A DNA stretch of 34,186 nt from a virus (lineage: Duplodnaviria > Caudoviricetes). The notes under the pieces are model-generated. The model saw only the letters and a program-made list of their open reading frames with translations. It was not told the DNA's origin and did no database searches. Shown piece after piece: positions 6,794 through 23,529 of the stretch (position 1 is its first letter; the number at the start of each line of letters is the position of its first letter). A program made the translations under genes and the position numbers. Where the stretch lies: IMG/VR virus record IMGVR_UViG_3300010384_000021, positions 1 to 34,186 of that record. One strand, 5' to 3'.

Positions 6794-6878
6794 TCCGCGA
6801 AATTTGAATACCAGACGCGGAAATCATCCGCGTTTCTTGAATTTTAAGGCTTGCAAACGTCCGCGAAATGCGTATACT
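6794..6878 (+). promoter_or_regulatory. Sigma70-type promoter and operator-like repeats of the moron cassette
   Basis: TTGCAA (6851-6856)-N16-TATACT (6873-6878); TCCGCGAAAT at 6794 and 6860; palindrome ACGCGGA-N5-TCCGCGT at 6815-6833. Confidence 0.6.
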
Positions 6879-6902
6879 CATCTCATCGAACGGAGACGAG
6901 AC

Positions 6903-7370
6903 ATGCGCACTCACGAAAAGCAGGCCGAACAGTTCATCGCCCTCATCGAGAAGGCAGGCGGTTCCGTCTCGTTCTCCAAGGCGCAGACCGGGACGGTCTA
7001 TGTAACCGTCGAAGGTTCCTTCAAGGCCCGCTTTGCCGATCATGGCGAGTGCTACTGCAACGAAGACGTTTCCGTTGACCCGCAGGGTGTTTCGATGCTC
7101 CAGGCGCTCCGGTCCTGCGCCAAGGCCACCGGTCTTGATCTTTCCCGTTCCATCAAGGCTCGTGAGGCTATCGAGCGCCGCCAGAACGAAGCCGCCGCCG
7201 TGCTGAACGCTGAACTGGCCGTCATTGCCGCCGAAAGCGCCCTGATCGCAGAAGTTCGCCGGGACACACAGCGCTCCGCCATTCTCGCACGCTGGCCTGA
7301 CTATGACAGCTTCCCAGCCAAGAAGCGTCAGCGCTGCCGCCACAAGATCAATCAGGAGATGGGCCTGTGA
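6903..7370 (+). CDS. Hypothetical protein of moron cassette (155 aa, MRTHEKQAEQF...)
   Basis: GGAG RBS before ATG 6903; normal composition; opposite strand to the late operon; contains RFADH-ECYC. Confidence 0.75.
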   Translation: MRTHEKQAEQFIALIEKAGGSVSFSKAQTGTVYVTVEGSFKARFADHGECYCNEDVSVDPQGVSMLQALRSCAKATGLDLSRSIKAREAIERRQNEAAAVLNAELAVIAAESALIAEVRRDTQRSAILARWPDYDSFPAKKRQRCRHKINQEMGL

Positions 7371-7573
7371 CCGCCGAGCAATTCTGCCTCTGGCTGGACG
7401 AGATGAAGGCCGCCGGACTGACAAGGTCGGATGCCGATGCCGGACGGCGGCTCGGGAAGTCGACGGACCGCATCGTCTTCTACAAGAAGAACGGCGCTGA
7501 CATCACCGTCGCCCTCGCCTGCCGCGCCCTCTTGCATCGCATGCAGCCTTATGGTTCAATCTCTCCGCTCTGA
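7367..7573 (+). CDS. Small HTH-like protein (68 aa)
   Basis: GTGA coupling with AGGAG RBS; MTAEQFCLWLDEM...DAGRRLGKSTDRIVFY...VALACRAL pattern typical of small XRE/Cro-like proteins. Confidence 0.7.
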   Translation: MTAEQFCLWLDEMKAAGLTRSDADAGRRLGKSTDRIVFYKKNGADITVALACRALLHRMQPYGSISPL

Positions 7574-7715: not shown

Positions 7716-7984
7716 ATGGCTGGGGATGCGAGGCGGTCGAGCTATCATTCGGAGTCCAGTGTCGTCCGAAAGCCCCAATACGTATCGGCTCTAGAACCGG
7801 TCGCGCTGGCCGCCCTGGCTTCGCCTCGCATCTGTTGCCGTCATGGACGGCGAATTGAATGGGCGTTCCGGCGTGGCTCAGGTTTGCGATTATCCGTGTC
7901 GCCTACCGGGAAGGAGCAACGGCGGGCCGGGTTGCAATCCCTCTGTCCGCGATCCTGTCCAACTCGATCCGCTCTCGCGGAAAC
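7716..7984 (-). ncRNA. Candidate structured RNA segment in the late leader
   Basis: Perfect 11-bp stem 7725-7735/7822-7832 enclosing nested stems; further hairpins at 7835-7854, 7929-7941 and 7946-7981; no credible ORF. Confidence 0.4.
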
Positions 7985-8061
7985 TGGTTGCGGTGGCGGG
8001 ATTTGAACCCGCGTCCTCTTGGTTATGAGCCAAGCGAGCTACCGGACTGCTCCACACCGAC
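7985..8061 (-). tRNA. tRNA-Met(CAT), initiator-like body with atypical acceptor stem
   Basis: GTCGGTGTGGAGCAGTCCGGTAGCTCG-CTTGG CTCATAA CCAAG-AGGAC-GCGGGTTCAAATCCCGC-CACCGCAACCA; 77 nt, encoded CCA, D arm like tRNA-fMet. Confidence 0.85.
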
Positions 8062-8065
8062 AAGA

Positions 8066-8092
8066 ATCAGAAAGGCCGCCGAAGCAGCCCCT
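8066..8092 (-). terminator. Terminator-like UUCG hairpin in the late leader, just upstream of the tRNA
   Basis: Minus-strand GGCTGC-TTCG-GCGGCC-TTTCT. Confidence 0.55.
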
Positions 8093-8179
8093 CACCGCGA
8101 CACAGCTTCGCCTTCCGCTGGTTGCGATTCCCAGCATCAGGCCGGGCCTATGGCCCCGATCACCCGTATCGCGCCGCAG

Positions 8180-8207
8180 AGTTTAAGCGCTGTGCGCTTA
8201 CTGTCAA
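8180..8207 (-). promoter_or_regulatory. Late promoter (pR'-like) with palindrome in the spacer
   Basis: TTGACA (8207-8202)-N16-TAAACT (8185-8180) overlapping the NusG-like stop codon; TAAGCGC-N3-GCGCTTA palindrome at 8184-8200. Confidence 0.7.
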
Positions 8208-8896
8208 GATGCGGCCTTGAGGAACTCAAATGGTACAGTGATCGTTTCTGTCGCCGCCTCAAGGCTATCGAGCAGCACTTTCACCTGATCCTGATCGTCC
8301 CATCCCTGCACCGTCGCCTCGTGGCCGGCCTTGTCGCCCCAGATCAGCCGCACCTCCCTTCCGGGGAACAACTTCTTCTTCGCGCCCTTGATGATGCCTT
8401 TGCGCTTCTCTCGCTCAAGGCGCTCGCCGGCTTTGGAAAGACTGTCGGCCTTGGCTTGCGCCACCGCCCGGCTGTTCTGCTCGTACATGCGCAGACGGAA
8501 CAGGTCCAAGGCGCTGATGGCGAACGGCTGGCCGCAATTGTCGACCACACCACGGACGCCGACGACCTCATAGAGGCGCAGCCAGTCCCAATCCGACAAC
8601 TCGACAAAAATATAGCCCTTGAGCAGGGCGAAGCGGCGAAGCTCATAAAGGCCGGATTTCTTCCGGTTCCGCACCGCCATGTATTCGGCCGGCATGTAAT
8701 GGACGAAGCCGGCGATATCGAGATTTGCCTCGATCTTCGAACGATCCGGGGTGAGCGCCGAGGCGATGGTGTAGCCCCTTCCCCGCGTCTGCCCTTTGAG
8801 AGCCGACTCGCTCGGTTCCGGCCAACGCTCACGGTGCGGAGCCTGGAACCCCGGCATCGTCCGCACCGCGTACCAGTTGCCTTCCGCCTTCGCCAT
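8204..8896 (-). CDS. NusG-paralog transcription antiterminator (NGN + KOW), probable late-gene activator (230 aa)
   Basis: WYAVRTMPG, LLKGYIFV and VVGVRGVV (NGN domain); FPGREVRLIWGDKAGHEATV (KOW-like); occupies the position of lambda Q. Confidence 0.88.
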   Translation of the reverse strand: MAKAEGNWYAVRTMPGFQAPHRERWPEPSESALKGQTRGRGYTIASALTPDRSKIEANLDIAGFVHYMPAEYMAVRNRKKSGLYELRRFALLKGYIFVELSDWDWLRLYEVVGVRGVVDNCGQPFAISALDLFRLRMYEQNSRAVAQAKADSLSKAGERLEREKRKGIIKGAKKKLFPGREVRLIWGDKAGHEATVQGWDDQDQVKVLLDSLEAATETITVPFEFLKAAS

Positions 8897-8913
8897 GTCC
8901 TCGTGTCCTCGTG

Positions 8914-9132
8914 TCAGCGAAATTTCGGGTGCGTGATAGCGGTCAGGATCATGTCTTCCGCGATCATCTTGTTCGTATGCTGGGACCGGCCGATATTGAC
9001 GATTGCCACGATGCCGGTAGGTTCATGCGTGGCGCGGACCCCGCCATGTGTCCCGACCATCTGCCCGCCAACGCGATTTCTGCCGCCGTCAGGCCAAGCC
9101 TCGAATGTGATGCCAGCCGAAAGGTCGCTCAT
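8914..9132 (-). CDS. Stand-alone class I release-factor (RF-1/peptidyl-tRNA hydrolase) GGQ domain protein (72 aa)
   Basis: GGQMVGTHGGVRATHEPTGIVAIVNIGRSQHTNKMIAEDMI aligns by eye with RF1/RF2 domain 3 (GGQHVN...VRITHLPTGIVV...RSQHKNK); GGAGG-type RBS, ATG 9132 two nt after the upstream stop. Confidence 0.85.
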   Translation of the reverse strand: MSDLSAGITFEAWPDGGRNRVGGQMVGTHGGVRATHEPTGIVAIVNIGRSQHTNKMIAEDMILTAITHPKFR

Positions 9133-9134
9133 CC

Positions 9135-9521
9135 TCACCCCTCCCGCTGGATGGAGAGGAACGGCAGCGACACATATCCGCCCTCGCCCTTCGCCGTCAT
9201 CGGAGCGCTGCCAAGCGCCGTTCGGTTCGGCACCCATTGGCGGTAGAACTTAATGCCGGATGAGGTCACGTACGGGCCGGTGTCGGGCTCATCCACCTTG
9301 ATCGGCTCGGGCGTCGGATCGACGTGCCGGACGTGATCGCGCTTGCCGAGGGAATGCGTCGTCTCCCGACTGGCATTGATCTGCGCCTTGCGCTTTTCCA
9401 GCCATACGGGGTCCAGTCTTGCCCGCGCCATGTAGTAGCTGATGCCAAACGCGCTTCCGATTTCCGCGAAGCCCAGGCCGCGCGCTTTCATGGCTTTCGC
9501 TTCATCGAGATTCCAGTTCAT
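9135..9521 (-). CDS. Hypothetical protein with N-terminal HTH-like segment (128 aa)
   Basis: MKARGLGFAEIGSAFGIS is HTH-like; ATGA coupling at 9518-9521. Confidence 0.65.
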   Translation of the reverse strand: MNWNLDEAKAMKARGLGFAEIGSAFGISYYMARARLDPVWLEKRKAQINASRETTHSLGKRDHVRHVDPTPEPIKVDEPDTGPYVTSSGIKFYRQWVPNRTALGSAPMTAKGEGGYVSLPFLSIQREG

Positions 9522-21836: not shown

Positions 21837-22285
21837 TGGCGCTCCGTATCCTTCGCCCCGAAACCGCATTCTCAAACGCCCCCGTCGGCAAGCAGAAGAA
21901 GCGCGCCCGCTCCGAGGATCGGGATCACCTTGCCTGGATCAGGACGCTTCCTTGCGTCGTCACAGGCGAGCGCCCGGTCGATCCGGCACATATCCGCTAC
22001 GCTGATCGCGTCTACGGCAAGCGAGAAGTCGGCAAGGCTGAAAAGCCCGATGACCGATGGGTTGTCCCGCTTTGTCGTCGCATCCATGACGAGCAGCATT
22101 CCATGTCCGAGCGCATCTTTTGGGCGCGCTATGGGCTGGACCCGCTTCGCATCGCCTTGGCTCTCCATGCCAATTCCGGCGACGACGACCAGGCGATGGT
22201 CATCCTTCAAGAGGCTTGGGGTGTCCGAAAGACATTCGAGGCTCGCAAACCCGATTTCAATCCATCGACAGGAGAAGTTCTGTGA
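21836..22285 (+). CDS. DUF968/HNH-like nuclease-fold protein (149 aa)
   Basis: HLAWIRTLPCVVTG...AHIR...KPDDRWVVPLCRRIHDEQH. Confidence 0.8.
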   Translation: MALRILRPETAFSNAPVGKQKKRARSEDRDHLAWIRTLPCVVTGERPVDPAHIRYADRVYGKREVGKAEKPDDRWVVPLCRRIHDEQHSMSERIFWARYGLDPLRIALALHANSGDDDQAMVILQEAWGVRKTFEARKPDFNPSTGEVL

Positions 22286-23529
22286 GCGAGAAGCTTTTGC
22301 CCTGCCCGTTCTGTGGCAAGGCTATGATGCTCCGTGGCGCGCTTTGGCCTTCCGAAGGTGACAGAGATGCGATCATCCATGCCGCGCCTACCGAATGCCC
22401 GATGGGCGATTTCTCCAACGACACTTTTGACGAAAGCATTATCGAAGTCTGGAACCGCCGCGCCTCCCCCTCACAGGTAGCGCCCGCCAATCCGGCGCAG
22501 GTGATGGAACTAATCGCGGACCTTGAGCAAGCTGTGCTCGATTTCGAGGACGCATCCAGCGCCACGTACAACCGCTCAAAGGCCGAACTCGTCAAGGCTC
22601 GCACAGCCCTCACCGCCGCCATAGGCGCAGACGGGCAGGCGGTGGCATACCTGATCGAAGAAGCCGAAAGCCGAGTGGTTGAGTTTGACAAAGACGAGGC
22701 AGAAGCCGCCAAGTCTGATGGATACGAGGTTCGCCCCCTCTATACCCATCCAGCCCCTAGCGGGCAGGCGGTGGCGGTGAAGCCGCTGATCTGGGAAGAA
22801 GACCACGGCATAGCCGGAATGGGGCCGTATCGTCTTTTCAAGGCCGAAACGCCGCTTGGCCGGTTTGCGTACGGCACCGACAGCGAAGGCTCCGCATATT
22901 ACCACACCGCGTCATCTGGCGTGATGATGGTTGGCAACGAGGCCACAGCGAAGCGCTTGGCCGAAGCCGCATGGGAGAAGGTAGCGCTTGCCGAAGTTGG
23001 CAAGTTTGTCGACCCGTCCGCCCTCCCCCAACCCCATCCCGCCGATGAGCGGGTGGTGGAGGCGCTGGAACGCATGGTCGCGCTTTATGAGAGTGAATAC
23101 GACGCTGACGCGCCATTTGTTCGCCCTGATTGGCTTATTGCCGCCCTCTCCATCGCCCCTGCTACGGCTGACGGGTGGCGGACCAAAGCGGTTGACGATG
23201 TGTTGGCGGAGCGCAAACGCCAGATCGAAGTCGAAGGCTGGACGCCGGAACACGACGACATGCACGACAAGGGCGAGTTAGCTCGCGCAGCCGGTCTATA
23301 CGCTTTGATTGCCGGTGCCGATGCGACCGACTACCGGAACGCTCGTGACGGCTACGGCTTGACCGATTATCTCGCCGCCGTGATGAAGGAATACTGGCCG
23401 TTTAATCGGTCATGGTTCAAACCGACCAACCGTCGCCGCGATCTCGTCAAGGCGGGCGGGCTGATTATTGGTGAAATCGAACGGCTCGACCGTCTCCCCG
23501 CCGCTCCTACGGCTACGGGAGGGCGGTAG
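22282..23529 (+). CDS. Mosaic protein with N-terminal Lar-like (restriction alleviation) Zn domain and conserved C-terminal phage domain (415 aa)
   Basis: LLPCPFCG...WNRR (Lar-like); VLAERKRQIEVEGWTPEHDD...RRDLVKAGGLIIGEIERLDR; GTGA coupling with AGGAG RBS. Confidence 0.75.
   Translation: MSEKLLPCPFCGKAMMLRGALWPSEGDRDAIIHAAPTECPMGDFSNDTFDESIIEVWNRRASPSQVAPANPAQVMELIADLEQAVLDFEDASSATYNRSKAELVKARTALTAAIGADGQAVAYLIEEAESRVVEFDKDEAEAAKSDGYEVRPLYTHPAPSGQAVAVKPLIWEEDHGIAGMGPYRLFKAETPLGRFAYGTDSEGSAYYHTASSGVMMVGNEATAKRLAEAAWEKVALAEVGKFVDPSALPQPHPADERVVEALERMVALYESEYDADAPFVRPDWLIAALSIAPATADGWRTKAVDDVLAERKRQIEVEGWTPEHDDMHDKGELARAAGLYALIAGADATDYRNARDGYGLTDYLAAVMKEYWPFNRSWFKPTNRRRDLVKAGGLIIGEIERLDRLPAAPTATGGR

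Follow-up and report, generated by a model that had tools for sequence, protein, structure and literature searches.

The GGQ gene

The virus record IMGVR_UViG_3300010384_000021 (Duplodnaviria; Caudoviricetes), whose 34,186 nucleotides are referred to here as the window, carries a minus-strand gene for a protein of 72 residues that, by its sequence profile and predicted model, is exactly domain 3 of the release factors (RF) and ends before the switch loop (Table 1). The GGQ mini-protein, as we call it, belongs to a family that is real, selected, widespread and named in databases, and that is functionally uncharacterised. The translation of the open reading frame (ORF) was identical to that in the original prediction, where the strand was unstated; it is the minus strand. 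The GGQ codons were found where they had been placed (GGC GGG CAG on that strand). The gene had also been credited with its own ribosome binding site and with coupling in the early-right operon, and the sequence agrees with both: a Shine-Dalgarno-like GGAGG stands 7 nucleotides before the ATG, and the stop codon of the upstream ORF lies 2 nucleotides before it. Lastly, the protein had been described as lacking decoding domains and the ArfB tail. Consistent with this, the 72-residue ORF has its own start and stop, domains 1, 2 and 4 and the codon-reading motif of RF1 and RF2 were not present in it, and 24 residues run from the start of the RSQ motif to the C-terminus. The net charge of the protein is +1.

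An alternative in-frame ATG at 9237 would give a protein of 107 residues and would overlap the upstream gene; the start at 9132 was supported by the median length of the relatives, 72 residues. Among the sequencing runs listed, three DNA runs had shares of 0.05-0.07 and none was of RNA, a result without bearing on expression. The upstream ORF had no Pfam or PHROG match in profile searches. A 464-residue ORF on the plus strand (7859-9253), which overlaps the transfer RNA (tRNA) gene and the real minus-strand genes, was put aside as a likely antisense shadow.

Table 1. Features of the GGQ locus in the window and the loci of the sister subfamily
Feature	Position	Strand	Remarks
Gene for the 72-residue stand-alone release-factor domain 3 (GGQ)	9132..8914	minus	ORF translation (plus TGA), profile, model, selection
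GGQ codons GGC GGG CAG	9069-9061	minus	residues 22-24, then M-V-G (cellular factors: x-V/Q-N)
RSQHxNK motif	8968..8988	minus	residues 49-55, helix start, common to RF1 and RF2
C-terminal THPKFR	8917..8934	minus	family-specific; conserved at the protein level, synonymous codons differ
Shine-Dalgarno-like GGAGG	9144-9140	minus	7 nucleotides 5' of the ATG
Upstream ORF	9135..9521	minus	start uncertain; stop 2 nucleotides 5' of the ATG of the GGQ gene
NusG-like protein	8204..8896	minus	17 nucleotides 3' of the GGQ gene; Pfam NusG E 1.1e-6; PHROG 25909 'transcription antiterminator' E 6e-23
Sigma70-like promoter	8207-8180	minus	3' of the NusG-like gene; context only
Terminator-like hairpin	8093-8070	minus	3' of the NusG-like gene; context only
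tRNA, CAT anticodon	7985..8061	minus	context only
Sister subfamily (other loci)	L062:5995-6213, L066:5953-6177, L070, L195-L197, L199, L200

Identity of the domain

The Pfam family RF-1 (PF00472) matched the query with an E value of 2.2e-5 and 24.8 bits, which is below its gathering score of 35, and it also matched 108 of 111 diverse relatives at E<=0.01. A profile of the 111 relatives aligned without gaps to residues 233-301 of E. coli RF2 with an E value of about 1e-19. Two AlphaFold2 models, with predicted local distance difference test (pLDDT) scores of 84 and 88, suggested a strand, a long low-confidence loop, two further strands and a helix. Their best fold matches were domain 3 of RF1, RF2 and PrfH (Z 7.6, root mean square deviation 3.3 Å over 67 residues), and in the structural alignment query residues 1-72 corresponded to RF1 214-285 and RF2 231-302. 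Since a Z score under 8 is modest on its own, the domain-3 assignment is carried by the sequence match. Double-stranded RNA-binding domains also resembled the predicted fold (Z about 5-6). The profile and fold matches, together with a GGQ in the loop that joins strands 1 and 2, place the protein in the RF-1 superfamily.

The best NCBIfam match of the query was PrfH (E 3e-8, 33.5 bits against a cut-off of 166.65), while the PrfB model matched all 111 members and the ArfB model touched 10 of them. PHROG 20323, a profile of 73 columns, matched the query weakly over residues 29-58 (E 4.3e-4; PHROGs has no cut-off) and 93 of the 111 relatives at E<=1e-3, the best at 9e-15. Longer fused forms were scarce: a search that scored 7994 candidates gave 9 matches, and 8 of these reached the level of ordinary RFs, about 60 bits. 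In a tree of 89 rows and 72 columns, from which PrfH and ArfB were left out, the family lay on one side and RF1 and RF2 on the other; the bootstrap was not settled, with support of 92/84 for 55 of the 56 family rows and 26/32 for all 56. The idea that the helix presents a new hydrophobic face was weakened by the RF alignment, in which the helix Met was common to RFs.

The phage family

A single-sequence search found 17 relatives and a profile search 411 at E<=0.01. The close set of 121 sequences consists of the query and the 120 relatives listed among the 411 profile matches; the GGQ was present in all 121, and their median length was 72 residues. The best 150 matches in a library clustered at 50% identity included 95 small proteins, 81 with GGQ, 13 without it (some of them fragments or frameshifts) and one that was RF-like. 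The motif was present in 80 of 93 small cluster representatives, in which the flanking loop columns varied (consensus mostly under 35%). Because profile and library rankings favour the GGQ, loci were also counted by DNA patterns outside the motif. The 135 loci so found gave 89 distinct sequences, 70 with GGQ, 12 without, 5 cut off and 2 with an RF-type loop; the GGQ was thus kept in 70 of 82 distinct full-length loci. Three distant members (P0133, P0134 and P0256) have GGM or GGL in its place.

In a codon comparison of 29 loci, the ratio of nonsynonymous to synonymous substitution rates (dN/dS) was below 1 in all 232 informative pairs of the 406, with a median of 0.25, the pairs not being independent. 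The window and locus L030 were separated by a dS of 1.72 and a dN of 0.04, and synonymous variation was seen in the Gly and THPKFR codons across the compared loci. By this measure, the ORF is not a chance frame and is under purifying selection.

The mean column identity of the family was about 33%. The basic C-terminus was conserved in the close clade, and roughly half of the diverse set did not have THPKFR. The atlas clusters nearest by features were 69-93% viral among members with a record, and a viral scan with P0129 gave no match. As judged from these searches, the family is large, about 70 residues in length and mostly viral in distribution. One member was found in a cultured phage, the Pseudomonas phage Boevelstad, where CDS0189 (L137:2477-2704) encodes a 'hypothetical' protein of 75 residues with GGQQVG in a run of small genes.

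Genomic context and hosts

The gene content identifies the window as a temperate lambdoid-type phage, with an integrase, an excisionase and divergent CI/Cro-like repressors (16.4-17.3 kb). The minus strand up to the GGQ gene encodes Erf, an exonuclease, a helicase, a methyltransferase, RusA and a replication initiator, and the GGQ gene is followed by the NusG-like antiterminator, the tRNA, terminase, a P22-like portal and head genes. From its profile matches and its place in the slot of lambda Q, the NusG-like protein is likely to be the late antiterminator. In lambda, pR' and tR' follow Q, and the promoter-like and hairpin sequences after the NusG-like gene are similarly placed; one promoter-like site was found against 0.9 expected by chance, so the position is suggestive and the count is not. 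An Rfam scan of the window found the tRNA alone.

The window and 8 of 59 other loci had a NusG-like next gene. In 9 more it belonged to PHROG 21451, 15385 or 6836; all of these loci were in the closest clade, and the upstream gene varied. In its Rhizobiales clade, the GGQ gene is often followed directly by the NusG-like, probable late antiterminator. PHROG 21451 (weak DUF6456), PHROG 15385 and PHROG 6836 (DUF6362), which occupy the same slot, may be other late regulators. The start of the GGQ gene overlapped the upstream stop by 1 or 4 nucleotides in 31 of 60 loci, though the upstream gene differed. In other types of phage, the distant members adjoin polymerases, exonucleases and integrases as well as unknown genes. 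Among 100 recurrent neighbour families, defined with a crude gene caller and many of them without a Pfam match, no conserved translation partner was found, and those that could be named were mostly replication, nin-region, nucleotide or packaging genes. Similarly, RtcB was not among the profile matches beside the GGQ gene in the window, and PADLOC matched none of 13 proteins. The position of the gene was read as timing, at the end of the early-right operon, and not as partnership.

A tRNA lay within about 6 kb of the gene in 12 of 60 loci, a count without background control, for which reason the link was not used. A CAT-anticodon tRNA, for either Met or Ile2, about 0.7-1.7 kb 3' of the GGQ gene was also seen in L011, L015, L025, L027 and L039. 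In L026 (7078-7151), a tRNA with a CTA (amber) anticodon, a possible suppressor or a false call, stands just after the late regulator. In L046 (4472-6700), the sole RNA-centred locus, the GGQ gene lies between an RNA-binding protein (PHROG 850, 466 residues) and three tRNAs. In L027 (9964-11805), the portal protein carries an Acb1 (anti-CBASS) domain as a fusion. Elsewhere in the window, a plus-strand ORF of 469 residues (22120-23529) had a weak match to Lar restriction alleviation and several matches to unknown PHROGs in its C-terminal part, and two opposite-strand ORFs flanked by the tRNA and the small subunit of terminase (about 6850-7573, plus strand) were moron-like and had no family match.

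The nearest genome-borne relative, 91% identical, was found in an alphaproteobacterial assembly, and others in Aquamicrobium, Rhizobium, Ochrobactrum and Sphingopyxis. Since the genome-borne relatives lie in such bacteria, the phage probably has a host among the Rhizobiales. RF1, RF2 and ArfB were all present in the five carrier genomes, which argues that the GGQ gene does not replace a lost termination factor, and PrmC was present in all four carrier hosts examined for it. S4-domain matches were found in short frames (119-138 residues) in three of five hosts, as candidates for Hsp15. In a survey of 400 host genomes, with at most 14 candidates scored per genome, the gene was found in at least one, the centre genome itself. 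In L145, an in-frame stop closely follows the GGQ of a host PrfH gene.

Possible functions

The reading that we favour, tentatively and with somewhat less than even confidence, is that the GGQ mini-protein hydrolyses peptidyl-tRNA, independently of codons, on large ribosomal subunits that are split or stalled, and that a host helper, not a tail of its own, probably positions it there, much as for the mitochondrial factor mtRF-R. The protein would be made shortly before late gene expression and would enter the A-site cleft of 50S subunits that still hold peptidyl-tRNA after collision splitting, heat or defence-induced stalling. On a split subunit there would be no decoding centre to satisfy. 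The GGQ would trigger release of the peptide, and the freed subunits and tRNA could then feed late phage protein synthesis. The helper may be a host S4 protein of the Hsp15 type, as MTRES1 is for mtRF-R. Catalysis is given this weight since a catalytic motif that persists in a family of such low identity is most often a sign of catalysis. Moreover, mtRF-R, which lacks a decoding domain, shows no activity on whole ribosomes in vitro and works on split large subunits together with MTRES1 (PMC8786322). In bacteria, the factor that clears Hsp15-bound 50S-peptidyl-tRNA was called unknown in 2022, and there is space for an mtRF-R-like domain beside Hsp15, which in E. coli keeps 50S-peptidyl-tRNA in a suitable state for it (PMC9757039). 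A general inhibitor of translation would fit less well with the place of the gene, directly ahead of that for the late regulator.

Several observations weigh against this reading, among them the loop residues, the behaviour of related proteins and the existence of GGQ-less forms. The loop was compared with 23 host RF1, RF2, ArfB and PrfH proteins identified by hidden Markov models, the RF1, RF2 and ArfB labels being set by inspection; this comparison is not circular, whereas a set of 49 RFs had been picked partly by loop pattern. Gly(-2) and Asn(+3) were present in all 23 host factors and Arg(-5) in 21. In the close family members, Gly(-2) was present in 3 of 121, and Asn(+3) and Arg(-5) in 0 of 121. 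Gly replaced Asn(+3) in 116 of the 121 and in 72 of 80 of the diverse GGQ set, and Pro was invariant among the close members at the position of the RF Arg(-5). The query loop, R-V-GGQ-M-V-G, departs from the cellular signature G-x-GGQ-x-(V/Q)-N with Arg at -5. In 86 of 121 close members, the loop before the GGQ exceeded that of RFs by 3 residues. In favour of the reading, the distance from the GGQ to strand 2 was the same as in RFs in 53 of 80 diverse members with GGQ, and Val(+2), His(+1), a basic residue in strand 2 and RSQHxN(R/K) were kept alongside the GGQ. The exchanged positions fall in RF2 245-258, named the compact catalytic loop (PMC6742477).

In addition, E. coli ArfB without residues 101-140 gave no release and was 100% soluble (PMC3950681), and truncation of the ArfB tail abolished activity in another study as well (PMC3061065). 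The first truncation was assayed on non-stop 70S ribosomes, not on split 50S subunits (PMC3950681); because the bare ArfB domain was inactive and unbound there, unaided action of the GGQ mini-protein on intact 70S ribosomes is unlikely. The mitochondrial factor keeps a basic C-terminal extension (PMC8786322) and the GGQ mini-protein has none. The 100 recurrent neighbour families gave no match to S4, Pth or RtcB. Furthermore, a preprint routes Hsp15-bound intermediates through transfer-messenger RNA (tmRNA) (10.64898/2026.04.23.720132), and the need for a separate releasing factor shrinks accordingly.

Domain-3 genes without the GGQ were found in several phage lineages, in 12 of 82 loci and also in the phages OLIVR5 and LPPA15. 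The sister subfamily (73-78 residues, 8 distinct loci) has I-G-[A/M/Q]-G-[I/V]-G instead of GGQHVG and lacks the RSQ, and it keeps the fold and a C-terminal MIExA(L/I)THPK (hhalign 98.4%). Its sequences suggest that it is probably a conserved, non-cutting version of the domain. A description of this group as having kept the diglycine and lost the Gln was rejected, because the register in MAFFT and hhalign differs and the first Gly is lost; the argument for catalysis drawn from the sister group was dropped for the same reason. Further GGQ-less loci were L069, L071, L073 and L080. The OLIVR5 protein (YP_010107386.1, L135:2498-2695, 65 residues) and that of the cultured phage LPPA15 (L136:2995-3360) are both annotated as release factors, an annotation that overstates function since neither has the GGQ. 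RSQHxN(R/K) persisted in several GGQ-less variants.

The original prediction had read the gene as a release-factor catalytic domain. The identification stood: the RF-1 profile match and the predicted fold agreed with it, the GGQ was conserved in its homologues, and relatives proved, as had been supposed, to be annotated in other phages (in PHROG, RefSeq and NCBI names) and yet uncharacterised. The exchanges in the loop, the inactivity of bare ArfB and the GGQ-less lineages had been missed.

Because several phage lineages keep the domain without the GGQ, real weight must be given to a decoy role, which we regard as possible and on the doubtful side. The GGQ loop would soak up PrmC, lowering RF methylation and termination efficiency, or else an undescribed defence sensor or toxin aimed at RF1 and RF2. 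A small neutral domain without a ribosome anchor would suit this role, as would the loss of the Arg, Gly and Asn of active factors, the variable loop length and the repeated capture of domain 3 by phages with and without the GGQ, the sister group included; the isolated GGQ domain of ArfB does not bind ribosomes (PMC3950681), and PrmC is available in the carrier hosts. However, PrmC is reported to be specific for RF1 in its closed form with four domains (PMC3152332), so that domain 3 on its own should suit it less well, and the GGM, GGL and GGQ-less forms do not have the Gln that PrmC methylates. Moreover, a literature search on release factors or GGQ and defence showed, among the matches listed, no system that targets RF domain 3. 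Alternatively, the protein could be a binder without chemistry that occupies the A-site cleft or the peptidyl-transferase centre and so stops elongation or termination, or holds idle 50S subunits, the GGQ being kept for fit. The survival of RSQHxN(R/K) without the GGQ, the resemblance to double-stranded RNA-binding domains and the ability of the RF2 GGQ loop to adopt an extended hairpin by which the exit tunnel is plugged once release has occurred (PMC6742477) are in keeping with this, but a net charge near zero, the failure of the bare ArfB domain to bind and, to go by the gene order, the need of the phage for translation of its late genes right afterwards make it unlikely.

Two further explanations carry still less weight. 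In the first, the protein would rescue intact non-stop 70S ribosomes unaided, in the manner of ArfB, with THPKFR in place of the ArfB linker and tail. The C-terminus is indeed basic and conserved in the close clade, and Arg105 in the linker of ArfB matters for activity (PMC3950681); however, the protein has no tail for the mRNA channel (24 against 62 residues from the RSQ), the ArfB tail truncations abolished activity (PMC3950681, PMC3061065), THPKFR is not general in the diverse set, and the hosts already have ArfB, so that we consider this very unlikely. A role tied to the downstream late regulator, as a physical partner or through cis-acting control of its translation and without termination chemistry, is suggested by the NusG-like next gene in the window and 8 of 59 loci and by the three recurring families in 9 more. 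It appears highly improbable, as the downstream genes are not one family, distant members have other neighbours, and the gene order is explicable by the shared ancestry of these phages.

Release of peptides on split 50S subunits is thus the reading that we retain. In its broadest form, which we consider rather doubtful, phages would have pared an RF down to a tail-less catalyst of about 70 residues with a rebuilt loop that clears peptidyl-tRNA from split 50S subunits, a viral factor of ribosome quality control against defences based on stalling. It would be the smallest hydrolase of the peptidyl-transferase centre yet, with the GGQ-less sisters as its non-cutting counterparts.

Comparison with known systems

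A full-text literature search, in which subscription papers were mostly not covered, found no functional study of the family. The survey of release factors by Burroughs and Aravind (PMC6514570) lists RF1, RF2, ArfB, PrfH and organellar forms; the word 'phage' does not occur in its available text, and the sole phage entry in its supplement stands among stress-induced proteins. A review of jumbo phages mentions Pth1 and Pth2 and, in the available sections, no stand-alone GGQ domain (PMC7824862). The available parts of PMC8012679, PMC1586002, PMC12829566, PMC1849895 and PMC9503650 contained nothing on the family. New here are the signature of the loop, the sister forms without GGQ, the place of the gene ahead of the late regulator and the member in a cultured phage.

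One close known system, weakly matched by the query, is PHROG 20323 (also 3122), 'RF-1 domain peptide chain release factor', which is likewise a small stand-alone phage domain 3. However, this PHROG and RefSeq label mixes forms and includes the GGQ-less OLIVR5 protein; for copies in Rhizobium and Sphingopyxis, NCBI uses names of the kind 'peptide chain release factor-like protein'. The protein shares with RF1 and RF2 the fold of domain 3, the GGQ, the strand motif H-x-P-(S/T)-G and RSQHxN(R/K), but it is without domains 1, 2 and 4 and the switch loop, and its helix closes with THPKFR where the RFs have a basic K-A-K/R-L run. Like ArfB (YaeJ) and ICT1, it is a GGQ domain without a codon reader; it lacks their alpha-i insertion, linker and basic tail of about 40 residues, and where five host ArfB proteins have 62 residues from the RSQ, 14-15 of them basic, the GGQ mini-protein has 24. 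PrfH, a sporadic factor linked to biological conflict and found with RtcB2, also contains a GGQ domain, but it keeps the loop Arg, Gly and Asn (8 of 8), and the GGQ mini-protein has neither its rRNA-recognition domain nor an RtcB neighbour. With mtRF-R (C12orf65), the partner of MTRES1, it shares a GGQ domain of the RF type (Z about 6) and the absence of decoding domains. The mitochondrial protein has in addition an extension at the C-terminus, which is basic, and an S4 protein as its known partner, neither of which is encoded by the phage in the window.

The GGQ factors of the cited papers all need a second part, be it a codon reader, an rRNA-recognition domain or a basic tail, to reach the peptidyl-transferase centre. 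A family without such a part would represent either a new solution, with a bearing on how peptidyl-tRNA is cleared from split 50S subunits, or a decoy for an unrecognised host factor that reads RFs.
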